From Escherichia coli (lineage in GTDB: Bacteria > Pseudomonadota > Gammaproteobacteria > Enterobacterales > Enterobacteriaceae): a stretch of DNA of 64,000 nucleotides. The stretch lies in NCBI RefSeq assembly GCF_041886205.1, contig NZ_CP169029.1, one strand, 5' to 3'. Of this stretch, positions 15,541 through 58,491 are shown piece after piece (within the stretch, counting starts at the first letter, position 1; every line of letters starts with the position of its first letter). The notes beneath the pieces are model-generated. The model was given only the letters and a program-made list of their open reading frames with translations, was not told where the DNA came from and searched no databases. A program made the position numbers and the translations under genes.

Positions 15541-15689
15541 TATTATTTACATAAATGTTGAACGATGGTTTTGTGACTGCTGTCGAATATTTGAATATCG
15601 GCTTAAAAAATAAGCCTGTCATCTCTTTTATTAAGCACAATTCCGTGTAAGGTATACGCATTAGTTAATTATCTTGTAACTGTTAAATC

Positions 15690-15744
15690 AGGCAAGGCAA
15701 TGTTTGAAGTAATTATTACTTCTGACATGCCTTGCCTTTTTTTT
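15690..15744 (+). terminator. leader stem-loop plus U8 tract upstream of the antiterminator gene; candidate conditional (RAT-associated) terminator
   Basis: Outer stem aggcaaggca (15690-15699) pairs with tgccttgcct (15728-15737); inner palindrome gaagtaat-t-attacttc (15706-15722); followed by 8 T (15737-15744); ends 12 nt before RBS gggag and ATG 15757. Confidence 0.6.
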
Positions 15745-15756
15745 GGGAGCCATGGA

Positions 15757-16581: not shown

Positions 16582-16612
16582 TTATACATAACATTTTCAT
16601 GAGATAACCAGT

Positions 16613-18193: not shown

Positions 18194-19401
18194 TGGATAT
18201 TTTTAATACCTCAATTTCTCGTAAAGGAACATATTGCACACAATGGGACTTTTGTGAAGACAGATTTGGTGTAAAAGATGTATTACCATTCTCTATTTCA
18301 GATATGGATCTTCCGATACCGGAAGCTATCATCAGAACATTAAAAAAACGTCTGGAACACCCGATTTTAGGGTACAGTCGTTGGCAGCATGATGACTATC
18401 TGAATTCGATAGTCAATTGGTATCATCAACAATATAAAACAGAGATTCAACCAGAATGGATCACCTATAGCCCAAGCGTGATGTATTCAATATCTAAGGC
18501 AATAGAAATATTGACATTGAATGGAGATAATATTCTCATTTTCACGCCTGTTTATAACGCATTTTTTGATGTGATTAAGCATAATGGTCGAAACATGCTA
18601 ACAACCTCTTTGATGAAAGAAAATGGGAGAGGCTACGTTATCAACTGGCAAGACTTTGAGCTTAAAATTAAAAGCGCGAAGATGGTGTTATTATGTAATC
18701 CTCATAACCCGACAGGAACGGTCTGGTCGGAAGACGATCTTCACAGAATCGCAGCATGCTGTGCAAGGCATAATATTTGGTTATGTTCAGATGAAATACA
18801 TAGTGATTTTGTTTTTAATCATAGTTTCACGTCAGCGCTAACAATAAAAGATGACAAAGTGGTGGTGTTTAATTCGATTTCGAAAACATTTAATGTTCCT
18901 GCGCTAACCGGATCATATATGATTTCAACTGACGATAATTTTAATCATAAGTTCAGAACGATATCGAGGTATCGCGATTTCGTAAACTCCCCATCAGTAC
19001 TGAATGTAATTGCGACCATTGTTGCCTATAATGAATGTGAAGAATGGTTAAAGTCGTTAAAGGTACATATTGCCTCTAACATTCAATTTACTTTGCAGTA
19101 TTTAAATGAAAATATTCCGGAATTGATCGTATGGCCAGCTGAGGGCTGCTATTTTTCGTGGGTTGATTGCTCGGCCCTTGGTTATCCCTTTGATAAATTT
19201 TACCGTCGATTAATTAACGAAGGGAGAGTAGGTATTATGGCGGGGCATGTTTATGGTACTGAAGGAGAGGGCTATCTGCGTCTTAATCTGGCCTGCAGTC
19301 GAGAAAAATTATATATGGGGCTTGCGCGCCTTGCGAGTGTAATTAAAAATATTAATCAGGAAAAAGAAAATGAACAATACGGATCTTATCCATCTTATTA
19401 A
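18187..19401 (+). CDS. PLP-dependent aminotransferase class I/II fold protein, MalY/PatB-like cystathionine beta-lyase (C-S lyase), 404 aa
   Basis: N-terminal RKGTYCTQWDF...FGVKDVLPFSISDMDLP and the SISKTFN lysine motif are typical of MalY/PatB; start overlaps the PTS stop. Confidence 0.85.
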   Translation: MLMDIFNTSISRKGTYCTQWDFCEDRFGVKDVLPFSISDMDLPIPEAIIRTLKKRLEHPILGYSRWQHDDYLNSIVNWYHQQYKTEIQPEWITYSPSVMYSISKAIEILTLNGDNILIFTPVYNAFFDVIKHNGRNMLTTSLMKENGRGYVINWQDFELKIKSAKMVLLCNPHNPTGTVWSEDDLHRIAACCARHNIWLCSDEIHSDFVFNHSFTSALTIKDDKVVVFNSISKTFNVPALTGSYMISTDDNFNHKFRTISRYRDFVNSPSVLNVIATIVAYNECEEWLKSLKVHIASNIQFTLQYLNENIPELIVWPAEGCYFSWVDCSALGYPFDKFYRRLINEGRVGIMAGHVYGTEGEGYLRLNLACSREKLYMGLARLASVIKNINQEKENEQYGSYPSY

Positions 19402-19966
19402 ACGTTTTATGCGTAACGAACATAAAGCAGTAGAAGAGGTTATTGATTCCCCCCTTTCGGAAGTCGCGAATTTAATTAAAATATTACAATCTTGCCAGGG
19501 AAAAGTTGTTTTTATTGGTGTTGGGAAATCTGGCATTATTGCCAGAAAACTTGCTGCAACATTTGCCAGCACCGGAACTCCCTCGTTTTTTGTTCACGGT
19601 ACGGAAGCGGTACACGGCGACCTTGGGATGGTGGCGAAAGACGATGTTGTTATTCTTATTTCAAACAGTGGTGAGACGGCGGAAATCCTGGCGACACTGC
19701 CTAGTTTGAAAAAAATGGGTAATTATTTGATCTCTTTTACCCGCAGTCATCACTCATCGCTTGCGATAAGTTGTGATTTATCTGTTGAAATCCCCGTCAA
19801 AAGTGAGGCGGATAATTTAGGTTTAGCACCGTCATGCTCGTCTACTGTTGTTCTGGTTGTTGGTGATGCGGTGGCGCTTGCACTCTCTGAATTGAAAAAA
19901 TTTACTCGTGCTGATTTCGGCTTATATCATCCAGGAGGTGCACTCGGCATTAAAGCAAATTCATAA
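19370..19966 (+). CDS. single SIS-domain sugar-phosphate isomerase, KpsF/GutQ-like but lacking CBS domains (198 aa)
   Basis: VVFIGVGKSGIIARKLAATFASTGTPSFFVHGTEAVHGDLGMV...ILISNSGET matches the arabinose-5-phosphate isomerase SIS domain; overlaps the preceding gene by about 30 nt. Confidence 0.8.
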   Translation: MNNTDLIHLIKRFMRNEHKAVEEVIDSPLSEVANLIKILQSCQGKVVFIGVGKSGIIARKLAATFASTGTPSFFVHGTEAVHGDLGMVAKDDVVILISNSGETAEILATLPSLKKMGNYLISFTRSHHSSLAISCDLSVEIPVKSEADNLGLAPSCSSTVVLVVGDAVALALSELKKFTRADFGLYHPGGALGIKANS

Positions 19967-20037
19967 TTTCAAAGTATAAATACAGTAACCGGTCACGCCA
20001 TCTTTTGGGGTGGCGTTCATTGAAGTGAGTGTCAGCT

Positions 20038-20985
20038 ATGAAAAATGTTCTGGTCACCGTCCCCAACTTTTCAGCACGCTGTGTTTCCGCCAGCAAGTTG
20101 CTAAGAGAGAATAATTTTAATCTTATTATTAAGAATAATGTGGAGCATCTGCTTAAATCAGAATCCACTGCATTACGAGAATCTATTTGCGCGGTCATCG
20201 CCGGAAAAGATTGTTATCAGGCGGACACGCTATCATTGCTGCCTGGTGTGAAAATAATATCAAGATTCGGGACGGGGATAGATAATATTGATCTTCGTGC
20301 AGCACAACAATCCGGTATTGTAGTCAATAATGCGGTTGGGATTAATTCAAATGCTGTCGCGGAATTTATCATTGGACTTATCTTCGCGAGCATGAGAAAT
20401 ATTCCAGGCAGCTATCATGCGATGCAAAATGGCTACTGGGGTGAGTCGCATGGCTATGAATTACAAGGCAAACGGATTGGCATGGTTGGCTACGGCAATA
20501 TAGGTAAAACCCTGGCAAAAAGGTTATCCGGTTTTGATGTTGAGCTTTTAGCTTATGACAAACAACCCGATTATCAGGTTGCTGACAAAGTTGGAGTTCA
20601 GTTTGTATCAATTGAAGATATCTTTATGCAGTCGCATGTCATCATTGTTCTTTTGCCTTTTTCTCCTGAGCTGGAGAACTTCATTAGTCATAAATATTTG
20701 TCGATGATGCGCAATGGTGCTCTAATCATCAATGCCGCAAGGGGAAAGTTGCTGGATGAGGGCGCTTTACTACAGGTGATTGAAGAACGAAATGTGTTTG
20801 CGGCGCTGGATGTGTTTAGCTCTGAACCGTTGGCGCAATTTAGCCCACTGCTACATGCCAAAAATATCATTACAACGCCGCATATTGCGGCCGCCACCGT
20901 TGAGTCATACCAGCAAACCGGTACACACGTTGCCCAGTCGATAATTGATTACTTCGCAGGAAGGGAGATAAAAAACGTGTTGTGA
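20038..20985 (+). CDS. D-isomer-specific 2-hydroxyacid dehydrogenase family NAD-binding protein (~315 aa)
   Basis: Rossmann motif GKRIGMVGYGNIGKTLAKRL and the family pattern ...LLPFSPELENFIS...; ATG 20038 preferred over the GTG at 20029 (uncertain). Confidence 0.8.
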   Translation: MKNVLVTVPNFSARCVSASKLLRENNFNLIIKNNVEHLLKSESTALRESICAVIAGKDCYQADTLSLLPGVKIISRFGTGIDNIDLRAAQQSGIVVNNAVGINSNAVAEFIIGLIFASMRNIPGSYHAMQNGYWGESHGYELQGKRIGMVGYGNIGKTLAKRLSGFDVELLAYDKQPDYQVADKVGVQFVSIEDIFMQSHVIIVLLPFSPELENFISHKYLSMMRNGALIINAARGKLLDEGALLQVIEERNVFAALDVFSSEPLAQFSPLLHAKNIITTPHIAAATVESYQQTGTHVAQSIIDYFAGREIKNVL

Positions 20986-21011
20986 GTTCAGCGAACGAAG
21001 TTTTTAAATAC

Positions 21012-21047
21012 AAAAAAACCGCAATTTGTGGAACACATTGCGGTTTA
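21012..21047 (-). terminator. rho-independent terminator of the tRNA-fMet operon (8-bp GC-containing stem followed by U7 on the minus strand)
   Basis: Stem accgcaat (21018-21025) pairs with attgcggt (21037-21044); the plus-strand A7 at 21012-21018 reads as U7 after the hairpin on the minus strand; 17 bp from the metV 3' end. Confidence 0.7.
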
Positions 21048-21063
21048 TCAGCATTCTAAGTAT

Positions 21064-21140
<77 letters not shown>

Positions 21141-21172
21141 TCACCGTACTGCTTTATTTCATCAAATTTGAT

Positions 21173-21249
<77 letters not shown>

Positions 21250-21282
21250 TCACCGTACTGCTTTACTTCATCAAATTTTAAT

Positions 21283-21359
<77 letters not shown>

Positions 21360-21567: not shown

Positions 21568-22665
21568 ATGAAAGGACGTTGGGTAAAGTACCTTCTTATG
21601 GGCACGGTTGTGGCAATGCTTGCCGCCTGCTCTTCCAAACCAACCGATCGCGGACAGCAATATAAAGACGGGAAATTTACCCAGCCTTTCTCTCTGGTGA
21701 ACCAGCCAGATGCCGTTGGCGCGCCGATTAACGCCGGTGATTTTGCCGAGCAAATTAACCATATCCGTAATTCGTCACCGCGTCTGTATGGCAACCAGAG
21801 TAATGTTTATAACGCGGTGCAAGAGTGGCTGCGCGCAGGCGGTGATACCCGCAATATGCGCCAGTTCGGCATTGATGCCTGGCAGATGGAAGGTGCCGAC
21901 AACTATGGTAACGTGCAGTTTACAGGCTATTACACGCCGGTAATTCAGGCGCGCCATACCCGCCAGGGCGAGTTCCAGTATCCTATTTACCGTATGCCGC
22001 CAAAACGTGGTCGTCTGCCGTCTCGTGCGGAGATCTACGCGGGGGCATTGAGTGATAAATATATTCTCGCTTACAGTAACTCCCTGATGGATAACTTCAT
22101 TATGGATGTGCAGGGTAGTGGGTATATCGACTTTGGTGATGGCAGTCCGCTTAACTTTTTCAGCTATGCAGGGAAAAACGGTCATGCCTATCGCAGCATT
22201 GGTAAGGTGCTGATCGACCGTGGCGAAGTGAAAAAAGAAGATATGTCGATGCAGGCGATTCGTCACTGGGGCGAAACACACAGTGAAGCCGAGGTTCGCG
22301 AGCTGCTGGAACAGAACCCGTCTTTCGTTTTCTTTAAACCGCAATCTTTTGCACCGGTGAAAGGGGCAAGTGCGGTGCCGCTGGTTGGCCGTGCTTCTGT
22401 TGCCTCCGATCGTTCAATTATTCCGCCAGGTACAACCTTGCTGGCAGAAGTGCCGCTGCTGGATAATAACGGCAAATTTAACGGTCAGTACGAATTGCGT
22501 CTGATGGTGGCGCTGGATGTCGGTGGCGCAATCAAAGGCCAACACTTCGATATCTATCAAGGGATCGGGCCGGAAGCCGGGCACCGCGCAGGTTGGTACA
22601 ACCACTATGGACGTGTCTGGGTGCTGAAAACCGCCCCGGGCGCAGGTAACGTCTTTAGCGGCTGA
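21568..22665 (+). CDS. mltA: membrane-bound lytic murein transglycosylase A (lipoprotein, 365 aa)
   Basis: Internal ATG at 21568 gives MKGRWVKYLLMGTVVAMLAACSS, a lipoprotein signal with lipobox LAAC; the track ORF is artificially extended upstream into the tRNA genes. Confidence 0.94.
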   Translation: MKGRWVKYLLMGTVVAMLAACSSKPTDRGQQYKDGKFTQPFSLVNQPDAVGAPINAGDFAEQINHIRNSSPRLYGNQSNVYNAVQEWLRAGGDTRNMRQFGIDAWQMEGADNYGNVQFTGYYTPVIQARHTRQGEFQYPIYRMPPKRGRLPSRAEIYAGALSDKYILAYSNSLMDNFIMDVQGSGYIDFGDGSPLNFFSYAGKNGHAYRSIGKVLIDRGEVKKEDMSMQAIRHWGETHSEAEVRELLEQNPSFVFFKPQSFAPVKGASAVPLVGRASVASDRSIIPPGTTLLAEVPLLDNNGKFNGQYELRLMVALDVGGAIKGQHFDIYQGIGPEAGHRAGWYNHYGRVWVLKTAPGAGNVFSG

Positions 22666-22741
22666 TGTGATATTCTGTATACCGTTTTGACGGATACGAT
22701 AGGGTGAGGGATAACCTCGCCCTTTTTAATTCTGAGGTGCT

Positions 22742-25682: not shown

Positions 25683-25888
25683 AAAAAAAAGCACCGCAAT
25701 TAGGCGGTGCTACATTAATCACTATGGACAGACAGGGTAAATGTACAGGAAGTGAAAAAAGGTAGCTTTGCTACCATGGTCTGAATCGCAGACCAATTGC
25801 AAACACAACAACACAACATCACAACCGTAAGCCAAAAGTTCACCAGAACACGCATTCCGATAAAACTTTTCGTTCCGGCTCAGGAAGT
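25683..25888 (-). ncRNA. gcvB: GcvB small regulatory RNA (~206 nt), divergent from gcvA
   Basis: Minus-strand reading starts ACTTCCTGAGCCGGAACGAAAAGTTTTATCGGAATG, contains the GU-rich TGTGATGTTGTGTTGTGTTTGCAATTGGTCTG region, and ends with hairpin GCACCGCCTAATTGCGGTGC plus U8. Confidence 0.9.
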
Positions 25889-33000: not shown

Positions 33001-33082
33001 CAGGATTCCTCATCTCGCTTTATTGGCGCTCTGCTAAGGCGGAGAAAGGAAACCACCGAAGCAGTAGTATTGGTCATTATTT

Positions 33083-33098
33083 GCTAACTCGAGTTAGC
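33083..33098. promoter_or_regulatory. perfect 16-bp palindrome GCTAACTCGAGTTAGC (copy 1), candidate LacI-family operator, about 83 bp upstream of the fucI start
   Basis: Read directly from sequence; the central CG and the 16-bp twofold symmetry are typical of LacI/GalR-family operators. Confidence 0.55.
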
Positions 33099-33321
33099 TT
33101 AGGTTTGTAGGCTTTTTATGCACAACTTTTTTGTTGTTGAAATGTGAGGGGCTTCACGAGAAGTGGTTAAAATACGATCTCTGTCAAATTATTATTTAGC
33201 GGGAGAAAAATAAATTTTACGTATAATCATATGGTTATTAGATTTTAATGGTTATGCATCACAGTTTTAACTCAAATGATTTGGCTAATTTGTATACCTA
33301 AAATAGCTTTAAAAGGCGATC

Positions 33322-33337
33322 GCTAACTCGAGTTAGC
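33322..33337. promoter_or_regulatory. perfect 16-bp palindrome GCTAACTCGAGTTAGC (copy 2), candidate operator about 133 bp upstream of the ABC transporter ATG
   Basis: Identical to copy 1, 239 bp away; a consensus TATAAT hexamer lies at 33222-33227 on the plus strand between the two copies. Confidence 0.55.
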
Positions 33338-33469
33338 AAAATGCGAAGAATAGATTGATGCGATGAATATTTATTCAAAGGTTATTCGTATCACAGTGGA
33401 GATGGCTTTAGTAGCGACGTTTATGCCGTACTTCACATTTTCAGTTTCTGATTATTGAGGAAAGCTGCA

Positions 33470-34969
33470 ATGTCCGAAACATTTTTGCAAATGAAGCATA
33501 TCACCAAACGCTTTCCTGGAGTGTTGGCGCTTAATGACGTGCAATTTTCCCTACGCCGGGGCGAGGTTCATGCATTATTAGGTGAAAATGGTGCAGGAAA
33601 ATCTACCTTAATGAAAATTTTGTCGGGGGTTTATCAACCTGATGAAGGCGAAATAATTTTTGAAGATAAACCAGTCTCATTTTCTGATCCGTTAAGTGCG
33701 CAAAACGTAGGTATTACTATTATTCACCAGGAATTTAATTTATTTCCCGAGCTTACAGTAGAAGAAAATATTTTTATCGGCAGGGAGTTTTGTAAAAAAA
33801 ATCGCTGGCGTCTGGATGAAAAACAGCAACGCCAGGCGACGATTGAAATTTTGCAAAAATTAAATTTGGCGATCAAACCAGATACTCTGGTTGCCGACCT
33901 TACGGTAGCTCAGCAGCAGATGGTAGAAATTGCCAAGGCCATTTCAGTTAACGCCAGGATTCTCATTATGGATGAACCTACTGCGGCGTTAACAGAAACT
34001 GAAATTGAAAGCTTATTTCGCGTCACCCGGTTATTGAAAGAGCAGGGGACCGGCATTGTTTATATCTCCCACCGTCTGGAAGAGTTGGCGCTAATTGCCG
34101 ACCGTGCGACTGTAATGCGTGATGGTCAGTACATCAGCACGGTGGATTATGAGTGCGTAAAAATCAGCGATCTGATTGCCATGATGGTTGGTCGCGATTT
34201 AGGGAATATCTATCCCCGCCGCGAGGCCTTGCAGCAGCGGATTCCGGTTCTGGAGGTAAACGGACTGACGCGCAAAGGCGTCCTGAACGATATTAATTTT
34301 ACGCTTTATCGTGGCGAGATCCTCGGCTTTGCCGGACTGATGGGCGCGGGGCGTACTGAACTTGCGCGTGCGATTTTTGGTGCGGATTCTATTGACAGCG
34401 GAACGCTAAAATTAAATGGTAAGGAAACCGTTATTAAAGATATTTCGGATGCTATTCAGCAGGGAATTAGTTACCTGACGGAAGACCGCAAAAAAGAAGG
34501 GCTGGCGCTGAATTTATCTGTTGAACGAAATATTATGTTAGGAAACTACCCTGAATATTCCGATCGTTTTGGGAATGTCGATTCGCGTCGTTGCCAACAA
34601 ACCAGTGAGGAACAGGTAAAAGCGTTAAGGATTAAAACGCCAAATCTTGAACAGGCGGCATTAAATCTAAGTGGAGGAAACCAGCAGAAAATTATAATTG
34701 CACGTTGGGTGTGTAAAGATACTGATATTTTAATCTTCGATGAACCCACTCGCGGCATTGATGTTGGCGCCAAACTGGAAATCTATGAGTTAATGAATCG
34801 CCTGGTGGCAAAAGGGAAATCAATCATCATGATCTCCTCTGAATTGCCTGAGGTGTTAGGAATGTGCGACCGTATTTTAGTGATGCGCAGTGGTCGAATT
34901 ACCGGCGAACTTAGCGCAAAAGAAGCGACACAAGAAAAAATTATGCAATACGCGACGTTAGAGGATTAA
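33470..34969 (+). CDS. sugar ABC transporter ATP-binding protein with two fused ABC domains (CUT2 family, RbsA/MglA-like), ~499 aa
   Basis: ATG 33470 preferred over TTG 33455 (RBS gaggaaag); Walker A GENGAGKST, signature LSGGNQQK in the second half, and total length indicate a duplicated ABC ATPase. Confidence 0.9.
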   Translation: MSETFLQMKHITKRFPGVLALNDVQFSLRRGEVHALLGENGAGKSTLMKILSGVYQPDEGEIIFEDKPVSFSDPLSAQNVGITIIHQEFNLFPELTVEENIFIGREFCKKNRWRLDEKQQRQATIEILQKLNLAIKPDTLVADLTVAQQQMVEIAKAISVNARILIMDEPTAALTETEIESLFRVTRLLKEQGTGIVYISHRLEELALIADRATVMRDGQYISTVDYECVKISDLIAMMVGRDLGNIYPRREALQQRIPVLEVNGLTRKGVLNDINFTLYRGEILGFAGLMGAGRTELARAIFGADSIDSGTLKLNGKETVIKDISDAIQQGISYLTEDRKKEGLALNLSVERNIMLGNYPEYSDRFGNVDSRRCQQTSEEQVKALRIKTPNLEQAALNLSGGNQQKIIIARWVCKDTDILIFDEPTRGIDVGAKLEIYELMNRLVAKGKSIIMISSELPEVLGMCDRILVMRSGRITGELSAKEATQEKIMQYATLED

Positions 34970-34972
34970 ATT

Positions 34973-35956
34973 ATGACTATCTCTGTAACCTCTCCAGACA
35001 GTAATAATAAGAAAATAAAGATAAATAAAGAACTTTTGATGCGTCTTGCGCCTCTTTTTAGCTTAATTATATTAGTGCTGTTTTTTAGTTTCAGCTCTCC
35101 CTTTTTCTTTAATACCGAAAATATCATGACGATTGCTCTGCAAACGTCGGTTATCGGCATTATGGCCATTGGGGTAACTTTCGTCATTATTACCGCGGGC
35201 ATCGATCTTTCATTGGGCTCCGTGGTGGCTTTTTCTGGTGTCGCCGTGGGGATTTGCGCCACACTGGGCCTGCCGCTGCCAGTGTGTATTATTGCCGGTG
35301 TTTTAGCCGGTGGAATGTGCGGCTATGTGAATGGTTTGTTGGTCACTAAAATGACCATTCCACCATTTATCGCTACCTTGGGCCTGATGATGTCCGTCAG
35401 AGGTATCAATATGGTGATGACCGACGGGCGCGCCATCTATTTTGCCGATTACCCGATGTTCAAAACGCTCGCTCAGGGACGCTTATTTGATGTGCTGCCT
35501 TATCCTGTTTTCTACCTTGTCATTGTAGCGCTTGTCGGCGCTTACATCCTGAAGAAAACCGTCATTGGTCGCTATGTCTATGCCGTAGGCAGTAATGAAG
35601 TTGCTGCTCATCTTTCTGGTATTAAAGTTCAGCGCGTGAAAATTTTCGTCTATGCCTTCTGTGGATTATTAACGGGGATTGCAGGTGTCATTCTGGCATC
35701 TCGTCTCAACTCCGGACAACCGACGGTAGGTGTGGGTTATGAACTGGAAGCTATTGCCGCGGTAGTGATTGGCGGAACCAGCTTAATGGGCGGTATTGGC
35801 ACTATTGGCGGCACAATCATTGGCGCTTTCATTATGAGTGTACTGAAAAATGGCCTCAATTTAATGGGCGTCTCCCAGTTCTGGCAAATGGTCGCGATGG
35901 GCGTCGTTGTGGTCGCTGCCGTTTACCTCGATACATTACGCAAAAAGATTCGTTGA
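34973..35956 (+). CDS. sugar ABC transporter permease (RbsC/AraH-like, 327 aa)
   Basis: Polytopic membrane protein; ATG 4 nt after the ATPase stop with RBS gagga. Confidence 0.88.
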   Translation: MTISVTSPDSNNKKIKINKELLMRLAPLFSLIILVLFFSFSSPFFFNTENIMTIALQTSVIGIMAIGVTFVIITAGIDLSLGSVVAFSGVAVGICATLGLPLPVCIIAGVLAGGMCGYVNGLLVTKMTIPPFIATLGLMMSVRGINMVMTDGRAIYFADYPMFKTLAQGRLFDVLPYPVFYLVIVALVGAYILKKTVIGRYVYAVGSNEVAAHLSGIKVQRVKIFVYAFCGLLTGIAGVILASRLNSGQPTVGVGYELEAIAAVVIGGTSLMGGIGTIGGTIIGAFIMSVLKNGLNLMGVSQFWQMVAMGVVVVAAVYLDTLRKKIR

Positions 35957-36029
35957 CTTAGGCTCCCTGTTTTATCGGGAAACAACTGCCCTGACGTTAA
36001 GGGTGATTCACTCAGAACGGAGTACAACA

Positions 36030-36980
36030 ATGAAAACCAGGCATTTTATCTATGCGTTATCTCTGCTGGCTTGCGTAAGTTCCAGCGCACTGGCGAAGGA
36101 TTTAAATCTTCCGGTTGTTAGTAAAGGTTTCCAACATGAATTCTGGCAAACCGTAAAAATGGGGACTGAAGCTGCGGCTAAAGAGTTGGGGGATAAAACC
36201 AGCTATGTTGGCCCGGCTGATGAAACGCAAATAGCCGAGCAAATTCAGTTAGTCGAAAATGCGATGGCGCAGAAACCGAATGGCTTGCTTCTGGCAGCCC
36301 TCGACGCGAATGCGCTCGCCCCACTGGTAGAAACGGCAAATTCACGCGGTATCAAAGTGGTGACCTTTGATTCAGGCATCAATTCAGACATTCCGGTGAG
36401 TTTTGTCGCCACCAATAACCGTAAAGCAGGTGCTCAGGCAGCTGATGCCTTAGCCTCGCAGGTAAATAATAAAGGGAAAGTTGGGATTATCGCGCACGTT
36501 GCAGGAACATCTTCCGCTATTGAACGCTCGGAAGGCTTCATGGAGCGTATGAAAGAAAAATATCCTGACATTAAAGTCTTACCCGTTCAGTACAGCGATG
36601 GTGACCCGCAAAAAGCGATGGATAAAACTATCGATATGATTCAGGCCAATCCCGATCTTGCTGGGATCTATGGCACCAATGAAGGTTCAACGCTCGGGGT
36701 GGCGAATGCCATTGATAGCCAGAATCTGAAAGGTAAGGTGAAGGTCATTGGTTTTGATAGTACGGAAGCGATTATTAACTTCCTGAAGAACGGCGTCATT
36801 CAGGGCTTTGTTGTTCAGGATGCATACCAGATTGGCTATCAAGGGATCAAAACGTTGAACGCGGCCCTTTCGGGGCAAGCCGTTGAAAAAGAGATCGATA
36901 TTCCCGTGAAATTTGTTAATGCCGAGAATATTAACACGCCAGAAATCGACAAACTCCTGCACCCATTCGGTAAGAAATAA
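36030..36980 (+). CDS. periplasmic sugar-binding protein (RbsB-like, type I PBP fold), ~316 aa
   Basis: Internal ATG at 36030 gives MKTRHFIYALSLLACVSSSALA, a signal peptide; the track ORF upstream extension overlaps the permease and lacks signal-peptide character. Confidence 0.88.
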   Translation: MKTRHFIYALSLLACVSSSALAKDLNLPVVSKGFQHEFWQTVKMGTEAAAKELGDKTSYVGPADETQIAEQIQLVENAMAQKPNGLLLAALDANALAPLVETANSRGIKVVTFDSGINSDIPVSFVATNNRKAGAQAADALASQVNNKGKVGIIAHVAGTSSAIERSEGFMERMKEKYPDIKVLPVQYSDGDPQKAMDKTIDMIQANPDLAGIYGTNEGSTLGVANAIDSQNLKGKVKVIGFDSTEAIINFLKNGVIQGFVVQDAYQIGYQGIKTLNAALSGQAVEKEIDIPVKFVNAENINTPEIDKLLHPFGKK

Positions 36981-37032
36981 AAAATTGGGGATGAATTTTC
37001 ATCCCCGTTATCTCCAGCGTCAGGGAGGCTTT

Positions 37033-38613
37033 ATGCACAACGGTTATTTTCTCGGTGTCGATGTCGGATCGGCCAGTGTCAGGGCAGGCGTTTACAGTGC
37101 CAGTGGCCACAGGCTGGCATTCGCTACTGCGCCCGTCTCCCAGTTTCGCCCTGGCGGCGAGCGTGTCGAACAGTCTTCGGCAGAGATCTGGCAACAAGTT
37201 TGTAAAACGGTGAAAGAGGCGACAGCTTTGGCAGGCATCCCCATTTCCGCAATTCGCTCACTGGGTTTTGACGCTACCTGCTCGCTGGTTGTTCTTGATG
37301 AACAAGGCCAGGGTTTAGCGGTTTCGTCCGGTGGATCTGCGAATCACGACATTATTATGTGGATGGATCATCGTGCAACTGTCGAGACGGCGCAGATTAA
37401 CGCAATGAAGGATCCCGCATTGCGCTACGTTGGCGGCGAAGTGAGCGTCGAGATGGAGTTACCAAAGTTACGTTGGTTGAAGACGCATCTACCGCAAACC
37501 TGGCAGGCCGCTCATCGCTTTTTCGATCTGGCGGATTTTCTGGTCTGGAAAGCAACAGGGCGAGACGTCGCGGGATTATGCACGCTAACGTGTAAATGGA
37601 ATTATCTAGCTCATGAGCAACGCTTTAGCCATAGCTTACTGGAATCGATAGACCTGACCGATATGCTTGAAAGAATTCCTGCCAACATTCTTCCGCCTGG
37701 CGCTGCCGTGGGAACGTTAACCGCCACAGCTGCTGAAGAGTTAGGATTAACGACTAATGTTATCGTGGCCAGTGGCTTGATTGATGCCCATGCCGGTGGC
37801 GTGGCGCTGGCTGGCGCTCACCCATCAGGAACGCTGGCATTGATAAGCGGAACGTCGAACTGCCATATGCTGTGTAGTGAAAAAGAGATATTCACCCCTG
37901 GCGTCTGGGGGCCATACTGGTCGGCCATGTTGCCAAATTACTGGCTAACCGAAGGCGGGCAAAGCGCCGCAGGGGCGCTGGTGGAGTGGACGCTTCAGGA
38001 GTCAGGGGCAAGCGCAAATCTTTTTCACAAGGCGCAGCAACGCGGATGTCATCCGATTCAACTGATTAATGAATGGGTAGCAGCCCTTGAAGCTAACGAG
38101 TCAGAACCCACACGAAATTTACATGTGCTTGCCGATCATCACGGCAACCGTTCGCCACGAGCGCGGCCCGATGCCAGAGGCAGTGTTTATGGCTTAACAC
38201 TGGAGCGTGGTGAAAATCAGCTCGCGCGACTTTATCTTGCGACTTTACAGGCAATAGCCTTTGGCACCAGACATATTATTGAAACTCTGCGGGAAAATGG
38301 GCATACCATTACCCGATTAACATTATGTGGTGGTGCAACGCACAACCCTTTATGGCTACGCGAATATGCAGACGTGACAGGTTGCGATATCCACCTGATG
38401 CAAGAAGAAGATGCCGTTACGTTGGGCGCAGCAATTAGCGGCGCTGTTGCCAGCGGAGCATGGGGGGATTTTACATCTGCGTGTAAAGCAATGGTTGAAG
38501 CCGGAGAGATTATTCAGGTAAATCCACAACGCCGTGAATTTTTAGAGCGTAAATACCGGGTTTACCTGACGCTTTGGGAGCAACAACAGGCGGTTAACCA
38601 ACTGATGCAATAA
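37033..38613 (+). CDS. FGGY-family carbohydrate kinase, pentulose-kinase-like subgroup (~526 aa)
   Basis: Internal ATG at 37033 (RBS cagggagg) gives MHNGYFLGVDVGSASVRAGVY, the FGGY N-terminal motif; GTSNCHM motif mid-protein; the track ORF start at 36913 overlaps the binding-protein gene. Confidence 0.87.
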   Translation: MHNGYFLGVDVGSASVRAGVYSASGHRLAFATAPVSQFRPGGERVEQSSAEIWQQVCKTVKEATALAGIPISAIRSLGFDATCSLVVLDEQGQGLAVSSGGSANHDIIMWMDHRATVETAQINAMKDPALRYVGGEVSVEMELPKLRWLKTHLPQTWQAAHRFFDLADFLVWKATGRDVAGLCTLTCKWNYLAHEQRFSHSLLESIDLTDMLERIPANILPPGAAVGTLTATAAEELGLTTNVIVASGLIDAHAGGVALAGAHPSGTLALISGTSNCHMLCSEKEIFTPGVWGPYWSAMLPNYWLTEGGQSAAGALVEWTLQESGASANLFHKAQQRGCHPIQLINEWVAALEANESEPTRNLHVLADHHGNRSPRARPDARGSVYGLTLERGENQLARLYLATLQAIAFGTRHIIETLRENGHTITRLTLCGGATHNPLWLREYADVTGCDIHLMQEEDAVTLGAAISGAVASGAWGDFTSACKAMVEAGEIIQVNPQRREFLERKYRVYLTLWEQQQAVNQLMQ

Positions 38614-38677
38614 GACAAAAGTTGAAAATACTTTTATGATTGTGATTTGACGTCTGGATGTTAACTGGGAAATACCT

Positions 38678-39676
38678 ATGGCTAAAACAGTAGAGCAGAT
38701 AGCCAGCGACCTGAATTTATCGGTTACGACCGTGCGACTGGTGCTAAATGGAAAAGCGGAACAATATCGAATCAGCGTCAAAACCCAAACGCGTATCAAT
38801 GAATATGTTGAACGCTATGGTTATATCATTAATCATTCCGCTCGCAGCCTTAAGCTTAACAAAACTGATACATTAGGGTTGATTGTTCCCAACATATCCA
38901 ACGTCTTTTTTGCTACGCTGGCAGAAAAACTCGAACAACGCTGTCGACGTTCCGGATATCAACTTACAATCAGTTGCACTTATGATGATGTTGACTATGA
39001 AAATAAATTGACGAAAGCATTTATCGCACGAAATGTAGATGGTCTTTTTATTGTTCCTTCGACGCTGGAAAATCAGCAGCATCATTTACGCAAAATTCGT
39101 AAGCCCATGGTTTTACTCGATCGTGATTTTAAATATACCGATAACGCATTGGTAGAGAGTAATAATATTTCTGGCGGAGAAAAGCTGACGCAAAATATTC
39201 TTGAGGCCGGGCAGACTCCAGTATGGTTTTTGCTGGGAGATGCCGGTTTGCCGAGTATCAGCGATCGTCTGACAGGTTATTTGAATGCGTTGGCAAAAAA
39301 AGGGATTACCCATCGCGATTGGGTGCGGGAAGGTCCGGTAAATACTCCGGAAGGCGGCTATGTCATTATGGAAAAACTCATTGAAGAGCAGGGATGTCCG
39401 CAGGCATTTATCGCCTCGTCTTTGCCTGTGCTTGAAGGCGCTGTCCGCGCGATTCGCGACCGTCTTGGCGCTGTACCGCCAGAAATCAATATTGGCACTT
39501 TCGATGAACATCCTATGCTGGGATTTCTCGCCAACAATGTCTGGTCAATGCAGCAGGATGAAAATGCCTGGGCAGAAAAAGCGTTCGAAATGATGTTAAG
39601 CGCGATCGAAGAAAGACCAGTCAAAAAAACAGTTAAAGTAGAAATGAAATTAATTAAGCGCATAAGAAAAAAATAA
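38678..39676 (+). CDS. LacI/GalR-family transcriptional regulator (332 aa)
   Basis: N-terminal HTH region followed by a periplasmic-binding-protein-like sugar-binding fold (LGLIVPNISNVFFATLAEKLE). Confidence 0.88.
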   Translation: MAKTVEQIASDLNLSVTTVRLVLNGKAEQYRISVKTQTRINEYVERYGYIINHSARSLKLNKTDTLGLIVPNISNVFFATLAEKLEQRCRRSGYQLTISCTYDDVDYENKLTKAFIARNVDGLFIVPSTLENQQHHLRKIRKPMVLLDRDFKYTDNALVESNNISGGEKLTQNILEAGQTPVWFLLGDAGLPSISDRLTGYLNALAKKGITHRDWVREGPVNTPEGGYVIMEKLIEEQGCPQAFIASSLPVLEGAVRAIRDRLGAVPPEINIGTFDEHPMLGFLANNVWSMQQDENAWAEKAFEMMLSAIEERPVKKTVKVEMKLIKRIRKK

Positions 39677-39808
39677 TAATCGCCAAAAGATATCAGGCTA
39701 CTGAACAATGATATTCAGTGGCCTCCCCTTACTAAAAATAACCCCGTCTTCATTTGCGGTGCTGTTTTACGCAACAAGGCGAGCTGAAACTGTATCTGGA
39801 GAATAGAA

Positions 39809-40456
39809 ATGGAAAGAACACGTTTATCCCGTGAAATAATTGAAACCTGTCTGGAAATGACGCGCCTTGGGTTAAATCAGGGGACAGCGGGGAATGTCAG
39901 CACACGTTTTGAAAACGGCATGTTGATTACTCCCAGCGGTATTCCTTATGAAAGAATGACGGAGAATATGATTGTCTATGTTGATGGCAACGGCAAATAC
40001 GAAGAAGGTAAGATTCCTTCCAGCGAGTGGCGTTTCCATATGGCAGCCTATCAAAGCAGACCGGATGCCAACGCGGTTGTTCACAATCATGCCGTTCATT
40101 GCACGGCAGTTTCCATTCTTAACCGACCGATCCCCGCTATTCACTACATGATTGCGGCGGCGGGCGGTAATTCTATTCCTTGCGCGCCTTATGCGACCTT
40201 TGGAACACGTGAACTTTCTGAACATGTTGCGCTGGCTCTCAAAAATCGTAAGGCAACTTTGTTACAACATCATGGGCTTATCGCTTGTGAGGTGAATCTG
40301 GAAAAAGCGTTATGGCTGGCGCATGAAGTTGAAGTGCTGGCGCAACTTTACCTGACGACCCTGGCGATTACGGACCCGGTGCCAGTGCTGAGCGATGAAG
40401 AGATTGCCGTAGTGCTGGAGAAATTCAAAACCTATGGGTTACGGATTGAAGAGTAA
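39809..40456 (+). CDS. fucA: L-fuculose-phosphate aldolase (class II aldolase, 215 aa); N-terminal ~70 residues appear divergent from the K-12 allele
   Basis: 215 aa; residues from about 75 onward (SSEWRFHMAAYQSRPDANAVVHNHAVHCTAVSIL...KFKTYGLRIEE) match E. coli FucA as recalled; the N-terminal part carries many substitutions. Confidence 0.9.
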   Translation: MERTRLSREIIETCLEMTRLGLNQGTAGNVSTRFENGMLITPSGIPYERMTENMIVYVDGNGKYEEGKIPSSEWRFHMAAYQSRPDANAVVHNHAVHCTAVSILNRPIPAIHYMIAAAGGNSIPCAPYATFGTRELSEHVALALKNRKATLLQHHGLIACEVNLEKALWLAHEVEVLAQLYLTTLAITDPVPVLSDEEIAVVLEKFKTYGLRIEE

Positions 40457-48266: not shown

Positions 48267-48812
48267 GTGGACGATTTGACCGCACAAGCCCTGAAAGATT
48301 TTACTGCACGCTACTGCGATGCGTGGCATGAAGAGCATAAAAGCTGGCCGTTAAGTGAGGAACTGTACGGTGTTCCTTCACCGTGCATTATTTCAACTAC
48401 CGAAGATGCCGTATACTGGCAACCCCAGCCGTTTACCGGGGAACAAAATGTAAACGCGGTTGAACGCGCTTTTGATATTGTGATACAACCCACAATTCAT
48501 ACCTTTTATACGACTCAGTTTGCCGGGGATATGCACGCGCAGTTTGGCGATATCAAACTGACATTGCTGCAAACCTGGAGTGAAGACGACTTCCGTCGGG
48601 TGCAGGAAAATCTGATTGGTCATCTGGTGACTCAGAAAAGGCTAAAACTGCCGCCCACGCTATTTATCGCGACGCTGGAAGAAGAGTTAGAGGTCATCTC
48701 GGTGTGTAATCTCTCCGGTGAAGTGTGCAAAGAGACGCTGGGAACACGTAAACGGACGCATTTAGCCTCAAATCTTGCGGAATTCCTTAATCAACTTAAG
48801 CCTCTTCTGTAA
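48267..48812 (+). CDS. syd: SecY-interacting protein Syd (181 aa)
   Basis: 181 aa; located immediately upstream of csrB as in E. coli. Confidence 0.92.
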
Positions 48813-48831
48813 TCCAAATACCCCATCTGGT

Positions 48832-48849
48832 TGTGAGAGATCTCTTACA
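48832..48849. promoter_or_regulatory. UvrY/SirA response-regulator binding box TGTGAGAGATCTCTTACA upstream of csrB
   Basis: 18-bp near-perfect palindrome read directly from sequence about 180 bp upstream of the csrB 5' end; matches the known BarA-UvrY target site of csrB. Confidence 0.65.
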
Positions 48850-49031
48850 GACTCTGTAGGAGATCGCCAGGAAATAAGCGAATACTTAAAAAGATAAGAA
48901 TCGTTATTTTCATTTAAAATCAAAATGTTGATTGTTAATTCTTAACTTTCATATGAAATTTTCCTTAAGGCATTGTCTGTAAGCGCCTTGTAAGACTTCG
49001 CGAAAAAGACGATTCTATCTTCGTCGACAGG

Positions 49032-49388
49032 GAGTCAGACAACGAAGTGAACATCAGGATGATGACACTTCTGCAGGACACACCAGGATGGTGTTTCAGG
49101 GAAAGGCTTCTGGATGAAGCGAAGAGGATGACGCAGGACGCGTTAAAGGACACCTCCAGGATGGAGAATGAGAACCGGTCAGGATGATTCGGTGGGTCAG
49201 GAAGGCCAGGGACACTTCAGGATGAAGTATCACATCGGGGTGGTGTGAGCAGGAAGCAATAGTTCAGGATGAACGATTGGCCGCAAGGCCAGAGGAAAAG
49301 TTGTCAAGGATGAGCAGGGAGCAACAAAAGTAGCTGGAATGCTGCGAAACGAACCGGGAGCACTGTGAATACAGTGCTCCCTTTTTTT
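49032..49388 (+). ncRNA. csrB: CsrB small RNA (CsrA-sequestering sRNA with repeated GGA motifs)
   Basis: Starts GAGTCAGACAACGAAGTGAACATCAGGATGATGACAC; carries about 16-18 GGA motifs, many as CAGGATG; ends with hairpin GGGAGCACTGTGAATACAGTGCTCCC plus U7 (49356-49388). Confidence 0.92.
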
Positions 49389-49433
49389 ATTCCTGCTATC
49401 CTTCGCGGCAGTTTTTCTTATTGAGGTTGCTTT

Positions 49434-49763
49434 ATGACCACTCATGACCGCGTTCGTCTCCAGTTGCAGACGCTTGAAGCGTTACTGCGTGAACATCAGC
49501 ACTGGCGAAACGATGAACCCCAGCCGCATCAATTTAATAGTACCCAACCGTTCTTTATGGACACCATGGAACCACTGGAGTGGTTGCAGTGGGTGCTGAT
49601 CCCGCGAATGCACAATTTGTTAAATAACAACCAGCCGTTACCGGGTGCTTTTGCCGTTGCACCCTATTATGAAATGGCGCTGGCGACGGACCATCCGCAA
49701 CGCGCGCTTATTCTGGCTGAGCTGGAAAAACTGGATGCTCTTTTTGCGGATGATGCGAGCTAA
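49434..49763 (+). CDS. yqcC: DUF446 protein YqcC (109 aa)
   Basis: 109 aa; position between csrB and truC matches E. coli. Confidence 0.9.
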   Translation: MTTHDRVRLQLQTLEALLREHQHWRNDEPQPHQFNSTQPFFMDTMEPLEWLQWVLIPRMHNLLNNNQPLPGAFAVAPYYEMALATDHPQRALILAELEKLDALFADDAS

Positions 49764-55540: not shown

Positions 55541-55564
55541 GAGACTGATGCCAAACACAAAATT

Positions 55565-55593
55565 GCCTGATGCGCTACGCTTATCAGGCCTAC
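55565..55593. repeat. REP element (GCCTGATGCGCTACGCTTATCAGGCCTAC)
   Basis: Classical E. coli REP consensus read directly from sequence in the gudD-barA convergent intergenic region. Confidence 0.8.
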
Positions 55594-55626
55594 ATGCTTT
55601 TTAATTTATTGAATTTAATTGGTTTT

Positions 55627-55661
55627 GTAGGCCGGATAAGGCGTTAACGCCGCATCCGGCA
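55627..55661. repeat. REP element (GTAGGCCGGATAAGGCGTTAACGCCGCATCCGGCA); forms a BIME-like pair with the preceding REP
   Basis: Second REP in inverted orientation 33 bp from the first. Confidence 0.8.
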
Positions 55662-55734
55662 TAAACACAGGCACTTTGTCACCAATCTGAAACCAGCGTC
55701 ATAAAAAGCCGATTGCTACTCGACAAGACGTCCG

Positions 55735-58491
55735 TTACCCGAGAATTTTGCTGGCTTCGCGCGCGACATTATCCATCTCGTCCAACAGTTCCAGCAGCTC
55801 CGGCTCCAAATCTTCTTCTTTAGTACCGCTACGTAGCTGTTGTTCGATCAGTTGGCAGAGATTCTTCATACGCGGCACACCGCTATAGCCGCAACTGCCA
55901 TGCAGTTTATGAATCAAATCAACCAGGCCTTCTGGGTTTTCTCCAACCAGCTGTTCCTCAACTTTGTTGCGAACTTCAGGCAGGAAATCGAGTAACATTT
56001 GCAGCATATCGCGCGCTAAATCGGTTTTTCCTGCTGCCTGGCGTAGTGCCAGTTGCCAGTCGAGGGTCGCATTCGGGTTCACCACAATTTCGTTGACTTC
56101 GGGCGTCACGACGCGAGACGAAATACCGCTGCCAGGCTTGTAGCGCAACAACAAATTATGCAATCGCTCTTCTTCAATCGGTTTCGCCAGATAATCGCTC
56201 ATCCCTGCGCCAAGCAGCTTCTCTTTTTGCCCGGCCATTGCATGCGCCGTTACCGCGATAACCGGCGTTTGTTGCTGATGGGGGAGCTGGTGGATGAGCT
56301 CGCAGGCCCGAATGCCATCCATGTCAGGCATTTGAATATCCATTAAGATCAAATCGAACGGCATCTGTTTCGCCCGTTCAACCGCCTGATGCCCGCTATC
56401 GCAAAGTTCCACATGTTGCACCATATCTTCCAGCAATGCGCCGATAAGTTTCAGGTTAGCGGGGTTGTCATCAACTGCCATGACTGTCATTGCCAGCTTG
56501 CTTTCATCGGTTACAGGCAAAAGCGTGTTTTGTTTGTGATGACAAAATTCCGTCAGGGCAGGCAACAGGCGTGTAGGTGTTAATGGTTTCAGCAGACACG
56601 CGCCGATACCATCTTGCTTGAGTTTTTCAGCATTGACTTGTGCATGGCAAGGAAGTGCCAGCATCAGGAAATCGGTCATCGATACCGCTTTCGCTAATCG
56701 CTCATGTTGCATTGTTAGCGGCTCGCGGAAGGTCACCGCGATGCCTAACAACATCATGTCGTAATGCGCGGGAGGCAGCGCGGAGAACGTTGGGCTATAA
56801 ACCACTTCCAGCGGCGTTTCACTTAAAATATCCAGCGTGCATTGCGCTGCTGCGGAGTTTGGTTCGACATAGGCCAGGCGCTTACCTGCGAGGCACTGGG
56901 TGGATGGCCCTTCGATAATAATGTTCGGGTTCAGATCGAGATTAATGTGGAACCAGAAAGTTGAACCGCGATTCGGCTGGCTATGGAACGAAATATCGCC
57001 GCCCATTTCATTAACCAGTTTTTGTGTAATCACCAGCCCCAGCCCGGTGCCACCATGACGGCGGGAAATACTGGCATCAGCCTGTCGGAAGGCCTGGAAT
57101 AAGCGCGATTGATCGCGTTCAGGAATACCAATGCCGGTATCCCGAATCTGCACTTCAATCTGCACTTTGGTATTACTCAGCGCACGTTTTTCTACCAGAA
57201 TATCAATGTTGCCATTCTCGGTGAATTTAATTGCATTCCCCACCAGGTTAGTGATGATTTGCTGTAATCGCAGCGGGTCGCCGATCACGTTATCAGGCAC
57301 GTCGCTTTTAATATTGAGCGTCAGTTCCAACCCTTTATCGTGAGAAGAATGTGCCAGCAGAGTAACGACTTCATCCAGCGTGCTGCGTAGTGGGAATGGA
57401 ATACTTTCCAGAATCAGCTTACCTGCTTCCAGTTTCGAGAAGTCGAGAACATCATTAATAATTGCCAGCAAATTATTTGCCGAACGTTCAATCGTATTCA
57501 GGTGATCGCGCTGCGTTGGTGTTAATTCTGTTTTCAGCGTCAGGCGGGTAAAGCCAATAACACCATTCAGTGGTGTACGCAGCTCGTGTGACATATTTGC
57601 CAGAAACTCGGATTTAATACGCGCCGCTTCCTGGGCGCGCTTTTTCGCCAGATCCAACTCAACGTTCTGAATTTCCATCTGCTCCAGCGTTTCACGCAGA
57701 TCGGACGTCGCCTGGTCGATATTGTGCTGCATCTCTTCGTGATAAGCAGCCAGCGACATTGCCATCGAGTTGATACCGTTTTTCAGCATATCCAGCTCGC
57801 CGAGCATAAATCCTTCCACCCGGCTGTCGAGTTGCCCGCGACGGATGCGGTCGACGGTATTCACCATGTTGCGAATCGGACCGGTTACATCGCGCATTAA
57901 GCGCCAGCCAAAAATAAGCGCAATACCGATACAAAACAGCATCATCACGCTGGAAATAAAGATCTCTTTATATTGCTGCAAGCGAACCGATTTAAGATCC
58001 AGCTCAAGCGCAATATATCCCAACATATTTTGACTATTTTTGGCATCGCTACTGGGCGATTCGTCGGGGGAGTAACTCTCAGAAATAATCGGCGTGCGGA
58101 GGATCATAATATCGCCGTCACGAGTGACAGTGAGCTGGCGAGGAAAAGGCACGTTGCTGCCGAGCTGCATCGATGAGGGATCAAGATGAAAATTGGAGGT
58201 GACAAAGAGTCGGTTATTTTCATCATAAACCGAAATCGCGCGAACAATATCGGAATGGCGACGATGCAGTACGCTTATTAACTGACCGATAGATTCGCGA
58301 TTTTGCAGGCTCATGCCATATTCAGTAGAAACTGCAAGCGGCTCAATAATGCTGGCACCGGCATCTTCCAGTTGACGCTGCAAGTCGTTATAGCGATGCA
58401 CGACGAAAAAGATACTCAGCAATAAACCAATAAGGACGGTCGGTGCCAGGATCAGAATCATCATGCGTGCGCGCAGGCTGTAGTTGGTCAT
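55735..58491 (-). CDS. barA: hybrid sensor histidine kinase BarA (tripartite HK-REC-HPt, 918 aa)
   Basis: 918 aa; HisKA motif [15 protein letters not shown], receiver domain and C-terminal HPt; partner of UvrY, which controls csrB present in this window. Confidence 0.95.

Follow-up and report, generated by a model that had tools for sequence, protein, structure and literature searches.

A near-identical copy of the K-12 csrB gene, with its UvrY operator, in a 64-kb window of an Escherichia coli chromosome

Introduction

The closest described counterpart of the locus analyzed here is csrB of Escherichia coli K-12 MG1655 (b4408, NC_000913.3 2924156–2924524, minus strand). The two have in common the syd and yqcC neighbors, the gene order as far as barA, the UvrY box, the IHF consensus and the terminator, and the 5′ regulatory region is wholly identical. 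One substitution separates them, at position 49362 of the window (the whole stretch of DNA that was analyzed, 64,000 nt of contig NZ_CP169029.1), where our sequence has A and MG1655 has G. An orthologue in another genus, csrB of Salmonella enterica, has the same 18-bp box, centered at −182/−181, together with an extra TGTAGGAGA and an IHF site (PMC4682653), but its activator is named SirA and its RNA sequence has diverged, the Salmonella record that we compared having ~82% DNA identity across the csrB region. The second sponge RNA of E. coli, CsrC, shares the CsrA-sequestering function, the dependence on BarA–UvrY and an inverted repeat lying about as far upstream, with a crosslink zone from −223 to −143 (PMC4682653); it differs in being encoded at a separate locus, in having a less symmetric repeat (TGTGAGACATTGCCGATA), in lacking IHF dependence and in its lower affinity for CsrA (PMC4682653, PMC3856055).

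Homologues such as RsmB of soft-rot bacteria and CsrB, CsrC and CsrD of Vibrio are described by the same covariance model (RF00018) and have the upstream box, the array of GGA-loop hairpins and the terminator in common with csrB. The loci of Dickeya, Serratia, Yersinia, Edwardsiella, Pantoea, Photobacterium and Vibrio score 83–255 bits against this model, below the 383.4 bits obtained here, and the CsrB homologues of other Enterobacterales and Vibrionaceae are 291–361 nt long and differ in their GGA counts. In Pseudomonas, RsmY, RsmZ and RsmX are likewise GGA-rich sponge RNAs for CsrA/RsmA, controlled by GacS/GacA (a system of the BarA/UvrY type) through an upstream activating sequence of the type TGTAAGN6CTTACA, but they are much shorter, carry fewer GGA motifs, belong to other Rfam families and are not sequence-homologous to csrB.

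The regulatory mechanism described next is transferred in all its steps from experiments in K-12 and Salmonella. BarA senses products of carbon metabolism (formate, acetate and further short-chain fatty acids) and phosphorylates UvrY, and UvrY-P binds the far-upstream inverted repeat; decay of CsrB proceeds through RNase E in a CsrD-dependent manner and also needs PNPase; and CsrA indirectly stimulates csrB transcription via uvrY, which closes a feedback loop (PMC4682653, PMC3856055). In vitro, in a defined system, purified UvrY-P and IHF are not enough to bring about transcription of csrB (PMC4682653). By analogy, BarA of the strain studied here would phosphorylate UvrY, UvrY-P would bind the repeat at 48832–48849, and csrB RNA would sequester CsrA through multiple binding sites. 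That csrB of this strain binds and sequesters CsrA is expected from the K-12 experiments (PMC4682653, PMC3856055), its RNA differing from that of K-12 by one base of the terminator.

Results and discussion

The csrB gene

A scan of the whole window with Rfam 15 finds RF00018 (CsrB/RsmB) at 49032–49391 on the plus strand, with a score of 383.4 bits and an E-value of 1.5e-111. The match spans model positions 1 to 356 of 356 and exceeds the gathering score of 71 by 312 bits, and this score over the full model places the sequence in the CsrB/RsmB RNA family. Alignment of 48780–49440 to K-12 MG1655 gives 660 identities in 661 positions; csrB of K-12 (b4408, an ncRNA of 369 nt) maps to 49023–49391 with 368 of its 369 bases identical and lies, as in K-12, between syd and yqcC, as an orthologue should. 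Because the alignment places the start of csrB at 49023, the transcript begins with GTCGACAGGGAG, 9 nt ahead of the first position of the Rfam model. With the K-12 mapping, the Rfam match, the strand asymmetry of GGA motifs and the covariation described below, we regard it as virtually certain that 49023–49391 (+) is the E. coli csrB gene, encoding the CsrA-sequestering sRNA in a full-length and near-identical copy of K-12 csrB; none of the results speaks against this identity. A discrete transcript of ~369 nt on the plus strand is predicted from the K-12 ncRNA annotation.

A sequence-only reading of this DNA had called csrB here, had named an Rfam covariance search and an alignment to E. coli csrB as the ways to check the call, and had labeled the whole as known biology. 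The call stands, both checks agree with it, and the label is correct: csrB and its UvrY site are published, the biology is already fully described, and nothing in it is new. The interval given in that reading, 48832–49388, does take in the operator from its very first base and closes with the final T of the terminator run, but the RNA proper occupies 49023–49391.

The sole difference from K-12, at 49362, falls in the 5′ arm of the terminator stem, where the A of our sequence forms an A–U pair and the G of MG1655 a G·U pair. Of the nine other genera in the alignment, eight have A as well, E. albertii, Citrobacter, Pluralibacter and Pantoea among them. Within the species, megablast recovers the 621-bp csrB region from 5425 of 5426 complete E. 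coli genomes, 3499 of these reaching at least 99% identity; the 3′ end is polymorphic within E. coli, since the last 60 nt in the version of the window are matched exactly in 1792 of 5419 genomes. Plasmid-borne copies were considered and rejected: seven records labeled as plasmids contain a match, and these are almost certainly mislabeled chromosomes or chromosome fragments, because they measure 0.57–5.4 Mb and are all typed as non-mobilizable.

The RNA contains 22 GGA triplets, 14 of them in the form AGGA and nine fitting CAGGA[U/A/C]G; CsrB has been described as having ‘22 potential CsrA target sites’ (PMC3856055). In the predicted minimum free energy fold, 16 of the 22 would be fully unpaired, typically in the 3–5-nt loops of short hairpins, and one triplet sits within the terminator stem. 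GGA loops appear in the Rfam consensus alignment as well, so the locus has the many GGA motifs, mostly in hairpin loops or single-stranded linkers, that mark the family. The sequence-only reading had put the number of motifs at about 16–18, which is wrong as a total and agrees with the fully unpaired subset.

The opposite strand of csrB has two GGA triplets, against 22 on the plus strand; a 369-nt stretch of the window contains 5.1 on average, and the second-richest contains 14. Dinucleotide shuffles of csrB contain 14.9 ± 2.5 GGA (maximum 23), a weak null against which the observed 22 lie ~2.8 standard deviations above the mean; this excess is modest because the composition of csrB is itself GGA-rich, and we judged the signal by window-wide density and strand asymmetry. 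Four features assign csrB to the plus strand, namely the covariance-model match, the run of T residues, the GGA/TCC asymmetry and, upstream, the control region with its operator. Folding energy was rejected as a strand test, both strands folding far better than their own shuffles (z = −4.66 for plus and −6.09 for minus). Low folding energy on both strands is expected of an array of short hairpins.

To these features covariation can be added. A consensus structure computed with RNAalifold for ten genera (Escherichia, with two species, Citrobacter, Pluralibacter, Enterobacter, Yersinia, Serratia, Edwardsiella, Pantoea and Dickeya) contains 48 pairs, 19 of which show compensatory double changes; the MAFFT alignment is poor in the divergent 5′ half of csrB, and covariation was assessed for the 3′ two thirds. 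The pairs supported in this way, as expected of a member of the family, include several GGA-loop hairpins and the terminator stem, the latter with compensatory changes in Yersinia, Serratia, Edwardsiella and Dickeya. The Rho-independent terminator that the sequence-only reading had reported is called by our terminator scan at 49356–49388 (+), at the 3′ end of the gene where the family has it: an 11-bp stem with seven G–C pairs and a 4-nt loop, GGGAGCACTGT-GAAT-ACAGTGCTCCC at 49356–49381, followed by TTTTTTT at 49382–49388.

Five mechanical ORFs of 26–71 aa overlap csrB, two on the plus strand (46 aa, 49047–49187; 26 aa, 49168–49248) and three on the minus strand (62 aa, 48965–49153; 45 aa, 49096–49233; 71 aa, 49230–49445). 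Their presence is what speaks for the idea that one small protein or several are encoded here and that the RNA-family match is incidental, an idea to which we give practically no credence. Neither K-12 nor the RefSeq records displayed carry an annotation for any of the five; the cross-genus alignment contains many indels that are not multiples of three, and no reading frame conserved across genera over csrB was seen in it; the conserved positions trace the stems of hairpins and the loops with GGA, compensatory changes included, and not codon positions; and the covariance score lies 312 bits over the cut-off. With the region read as csrB, the warning that spurious small ORFs could be called here was well placed.

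Annotation is where the value of the present case lies. ORF-based tracks do not show the gene, and among the RefSeq E. coli records displayed only that of K-12 has a feature over it. An ncRNA label on 49023–49391 and a protein-binding site on 48832–48849 would prevent false small-protein calls and would document a node that is central to this strain's Csr global regulatory network.

The UvrY operator

Upstream of csrB lies an 18-bp near-perfect inverted repeat, with half-sites TGTGAGAGA and TCTCTTACA, at 48832–48849. The full sequence, TGTGAGAGATCTCTTACA, occurs exactly once in the window, and the relaxed pattern TGTRAGN6CTYACA matches at these coordinates alone in the 64 kb; the same scan found no second UvrY box elsewhere in the window, for instance near barA. 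The center of the repeat is at −183/−182 relative to the transcript start (+1, 49023), that is, far upstream of the promoter of a Csr/Rsm sRNA, where the operators of such genes are found. The same sequence at the same position is crosslinked to UvrY in vivo and protected by UvrY-P from DNase I in vitro (Zere et al., 2015; PMC4682653), so that the palindrome which the sequence-only reading had named as the known UvrY/SirA site agrees with the published repeat letter for letter and in its distance from +1. Binding of UvrY-P to the K-12 repeat, which is identical, has been documented by ChIP-exo, ChIP-PCR and DNase I footprinting, and UvrY binding in vivo drops ~35-fold without BarA (PMC4682653). 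Phosphorylated, BarA-dependent binding of UvrY to 48832–48849 is thus predicted by analogy with the identical K-12 site.

The region between the operator and the transcript start holds further elements of the published architecture. A third UvrY half-site, TGTAGGAGA, lies on the plus strand at 48855–48863 (−168 to −160), 5 bp 3′ of the inverted repeat, where a partially conserved element of this sequence has been described (PMC4682653). In an alignment of 14 genera its T, G, T..G..A, T positions (48855–57, 48860 and 48863–64) are invariant, and these positions formed no part of the search pattern. An IHF consensus, AATCAAAATGTTG (WATCAANNNNTTR), is present at 48918–48930 (−105 to −93) on the plus strand, with an overlapping match on the minus strand at 48921–48933. 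Eight matches to the IHF pattern occur in the window against 3.0 expected, a match being weak by itself, and we counted this one only jointly with its conservation across genera and with the published evidence (PMC4682653). Its core, C,A....T,T,R, is kept across the 14 genera. At csrB, a putative IHF site has been placed between two zones of UvrY crosslinking (PMC4682653). IHF is required for optimal UvrY binding, and CsrB levels are ~10-fold lower in its absence (PMC4682653).

For the core promoter we infer, from the annotated +1 (49023) and the pattern of conservation, a weak sigma-70 promoter at 48988–49016 (+), with a putative −35 element TTGTAA (48988–48993), a 17-bp spacer and a putative −10 element GATTCT (49011–49016). 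A sigma-70 scan of 48700–49500 returned no promoter-like site at the threshold of the scanner, because the inferred promoter matches just 7 of 12 consensus positions; a sub-threshold promoter fits what is expected where transcription depends on an activator. The TTG of the −35 element is invariant in the 14-genus alignment, and GATTCTAT and the transcript start GTCGACAGGGAG are conserved within the Enterobacteriaceae. Read from the alignment, the 14-genus footprint is independent comparative support for the control architecture that has been published for csrB.

The second zone of UvrY crosslinking at csrB extends from −56 to +25 (PMC4682653), which corresponds to 48967–49047 of the window. 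Within it we read two direct TGTAAG hexamers on the plus strand, resembling UvrY half-sites and 11 bp apart, at 48978–48983 (−45/−40) and 48989–48994 (−34/−29). These might be genuine low-affinity half-sites that UvrY-P contacts directly, as opposed to the purely indirect crosslinking of UvrY through RNA polymerase; a bend introduced by IHF at ~−100 would then bring the operator-bound UvrY onto the hexamers. If so, direct contact would explain the proximal ChIP-exo signal, which Zere et al. left as ‘indirect or needing additional requirements’. Consistent with such contact, the two hexamers are spaced one helical turn apart inside the crosslinked zone, the stretch CTTGTAAGAC is conserved in the Enterobacteriaceae, and TGTAAG has been treated as one half of the inverted repeat of csrC (PMC4682653). 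Against it, DNase I footprinting showed UvrY-P binding in vitro at the upstream site only, and at the promoter-proximal, downstream sites the inverted repeat is, according to the authors, not preserved (PMC4682653). Moreover, the second hexamer overlaps the −35 element, the TTG of which would be kept in any case, and in the 14-genus alignment the conservation of CTTGTAAGAC is confined to the Enterobacteriaceae, with TTG alone retained outside the family; by simple arithmetic, any 6-mer is expected ~30 times per 64 kb. We consider direct contact with the hexamers unlikely, though not negligibly so.

barA and the gene neighborhood

The window is E. coli chromosome, inverted relative to MG1655, and the K-12 gene order (rlmD, barA, gudD, gudX, gudP, yqcA, truC, yqcC, csrB, syd, queF, ppnN) reads in it in reverse. 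Downstream of csrB, yqcC (49434–49763, +; from the ORF list and K-12 annotation) starts 43 bp past the end of the RNA gene. The tripartite sensor kinase gene barA lies at 55735–58491 on the minus strand; its 918-aa product is identical to K-12 BarA (b2786) in 918 of 918 residues and is encoded at the same genomic position, as befits the orthologue. From the 3′ end of csrB it is 6.3 kb to the stop codon of barA and 9.1 kb to its start codon. The two genes converge, and six unrelated ones, yqcC, truC, yqcA, gudP, gudX and gudD, stand between them.

The sequence-only reading had placed barA 6 kb downstream and had called it the gene of the cognate sensor. Distance and identity are right as far as they go, but barA is on the opposite strand and beyond six other genes; as for ‘cognate’, the word holds for UvrY and not for csrB itself, to which BarA is linked only indirectly, and uvrY lies outside the 64-kb window.

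It may be asked whether the closeness of csrB and barA has been selected for function, through co-inheritance or co-localization of a sensor and its target, beyond what synteny would give. Cross-genus comparison, in which the flanks were short and of uneven length, finds barA-like genes in the flanks of the box in E. albertii, Enterobacter sp. Ag1, E. asburiae and Cedecea neteri, and a probable one in Pantoea stewartii (47% identity over the C-terminal 375 aa), as selection on the arrangement would have it. Every one of these cases, however, is a related member of the Enterobacterales with a wholly syntenic neighborhood, and the flanks of Vibrio and Photobacterium yield only partial matches, 30–40% identical, to histidine-kinase domains. 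The 6.3-kb gap, the convergent orientation and the six intervening unrelated genes also weigh against selection, as does the fact that uvrY, which encodes the response regulator, and csrC, the second target, both lie outside the window. Selection for closeness is in our judgment improbable, and because the linked cases are syntenic relatives we read the proximity of csrB and barA as inherited gene order and not as a functional unit.

The operator in other genomes

In a scan of a collection of species-representative genomes, the TGTRAGAGATCTCTYACA box was found at at least 120 loci in other gammaproteobacterial genomes. The groups that bear it among the matches listed are the Enterobacterales, Vibrionaceae, Shewanella, Halomonadaceae, Alcanivorax, Kangiellaceae and a few others. 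Among the matches listed, 99 of 125 boxes flank a GGA-dense stretch, defined as a 250-nt segment with 14 or more GGA, no further than 800 nt from the box, on the strand reading outward from it; 1.2% of all 250-nt windows of the same loci reach this density. Rfam CsrB matches at or above the gathering score lie downstream of the box in 12 of the 16 loci examined, and in ten enterobacterial genera position 1 of RF00018 follows the end of the box by 166–193 nt (183 nt here). The Shewanella locus gave a sub-threshold CsrB match of 50 bits, and at the Vreelandella, Alcanivorax, Kangiella and Salinicola loci no Rfam family was found beside the box at E ≤ 0.01. The 18-bp box alone is a very effective finder of Csr/Rsm sponge RNA genes, including those of groups that fall below the Rfam threshold.

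These comparisons also bear on whether the palindrome at 48832–48849 could be a chance palindrome, a terminator of syd or the operator of another regulator. It does begin just 20 bp past the stop codon of syd, the upstream flanking gene (48267–48812, +; from the ORF list and the K-12 and RefSeq annotation), and at ~183 bp it is unusually distant from the promoter that it is supposed to control. Yet with up to three mismatches only ~0.02 matches to TGTGAGAGATCTCTTACA are expected in the window by chance, no T-run stands behind the palindrome and no terminator is called there, and the sequence is exactly the one protected by UvrY in DNase I footprints and recovered by ChIP-exo (PMC4682653). The near-fixed distance upstream of Rfam CsrB in the ten enterobacterial genera and the GGA-dense stretches that adjoin 99 of the 125 boxes listed point the same way, and we regard any of these other roles as extremely improbable for what we take to be the UvrY-P operator of csrB.

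Two observations on the boxes of other genomes may be recorded. Vibrio breoganii, V. fortis and V. profundi have three boxes each. Among the matches listed, the asymmetric boxes that flank GGA-dense stretches mostly share one orientation: 61 have TGTGAG on the distal side and CTTACA on the proximal side, and 16 are turned the other way, a raw count that ignores phylogeny.

UvrY boxes beside GGA clusters probably outside current RNA models

The 18-bp UvrY inverted repeat that lies upstream of csrB also adjoins shorter or weaker GGA clusters in several other lineages, namely Alcanivorax and Vreelandella/Halomonas (genome loci L004, L006, L045, L047, L059, L063, L116 and L121), Kangiella (L025) and Shewanella (L011). 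GGA density is 8–13 per 250 nt in the Alcanivorax, Vreelandella/Halomonas and Kangiella clusters and 18 per 250 nt in the Shewanella cluster. An Rfam scan of four non-Shewanella loci (L004, L045, L025 and L060) returned no family at E ≤ 0.01, and the Shewanella locus has only a sub-threshold match to the CsrB family (50 bits vs 71). The GGA clusters of these four groups are probably Csr/Rsm-type sponge RNAs missed by current models.

Multiple boxes and operator orientation

Pairs of boxes ∼500–1640 bp apart on one contig occur in Photobacterium (L026, L061, L072, L102) and in Shewanella atlantica (L068). Because every box in three of the Photobacterium loci (L061, L072, L102) stands ahead of a GGA-dense stretch, the arrangement suggests tandemly duplicated csrB-type genes there. 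Among the matches listed, three separate boxes per genome were found in Vibrio breoganii, V. fortis, V. profundi and Vibrio sp. UCD-FRSSP16_30. The asymmetric operator favours one orientation with respect to the sRNA gene: among the 99 listed boxes with a GGA-dense flank (at least 14 GGA per 250 nt within 800 nt, on the strand reading away from the box), TGTGAGAGATCTCTTACA faces the gene in 61 and is reversed in 16, counts that ignore shared ancestry, and the remaining 22 are perfect palindromes.

For 26 of the 125 boxes among the matches listed, including those at L031, L035, L043, L060, L064, L082, L083 and L090, a GGA-dense flank is absent from the available DNA, several of these boxes being cut by contig ends. 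The L043 box is on a contig labelled Porphyromonadaceae. The remaining boxes may belong to other targets of UvrY/GacA, or may match by chance.

Integrity and variation of csrB

In the clinical E. coli strain MARGA_3 (L122; NZ_CM170101.1, 3318–4895), csrB is interrupted by a ∼1.26-kb insertion that carries a gene for an IS3-family transposase; the break falls ∼94 nt into the transcript, corresponding to position ∼49116 of the window, and is a natural disruption of the gene. More broadly, no single place covered at least 80% of the csrB region in 22 of the 5425 E. coli genomes with a match, and one of the E. coli genomes searched gave no match.

Across 661 bp, the sole difference between the window and MG1655 is at position 49362, in the csrB terminator stem, where an A-U pair is found here vs G.U in K-12; eight of the nine other aligned genera carry A at this position. 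Of 5419 E. coli genomes, only 1792 match the 3′ 60 nt of the window csrB exactly; the 3′ end of the gene is therefore polymorphic.

At the other end of the gene, a palindrome (GACGA-ttctatct-TCGTC; 49008–49025, or −15 to +3) spans the −10 region and +1, and the terminator scan called it as a terminator-like hairpin on the minus strand. It falls within the proximal UvrY crosslinking zone of csrB (−56 to +25).

We also found csrB-like DNA in seven PLSDB ‘plasmid’ records (H21–H27). A plasmid-borne csrB was rejected on the basis of their size (0.57–5.4 Mb) and their typing as non-mobilizable; the records appear to be whole or partial chromosomes that were entered as plasmids.

Other features of the window

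Two segments of the window differ from K-12. The first (15500–21061, ∼5.5 kb) has no counterpart in K-12; it is flanked by amiC on one side and by three tandem initiator tRNA-Met genes on the other, and encodes a BglG-type antiterminator (PRD + CAT_RBD), a PTS EIICB, a class I/II aminotransferase, a SIS-domain protein and a 2-hydroxyacid dehydrogenase. The second (33013–39838, ∼6.8 kb) stands in place of the K-12 fucA–fucP intergenic region and the entire fucP, and encodes an ABC transporter (ATPase, permease and periplasmic sugar-binding protein), an FGGY-family sugar kinase and a LacI-type protein. The fuc cluster is otherwise intact but seems to lack the fucose permease.

The three tandem tRNA-Met(CAU) genes (21064–21359, minus strand) match K-12 metZ/metW/metV, and the GcvB sRNA (25683–25888, minus strand) gives a full-length Rfam match of 199 bits. 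Between gudD and barA, ∼130 nt (55553–55681) are 82.6% similar to the K-12 tcdA–mltA intergenic region (window ∼22570–22700); the stretch is a dispersed intergenic repeat.
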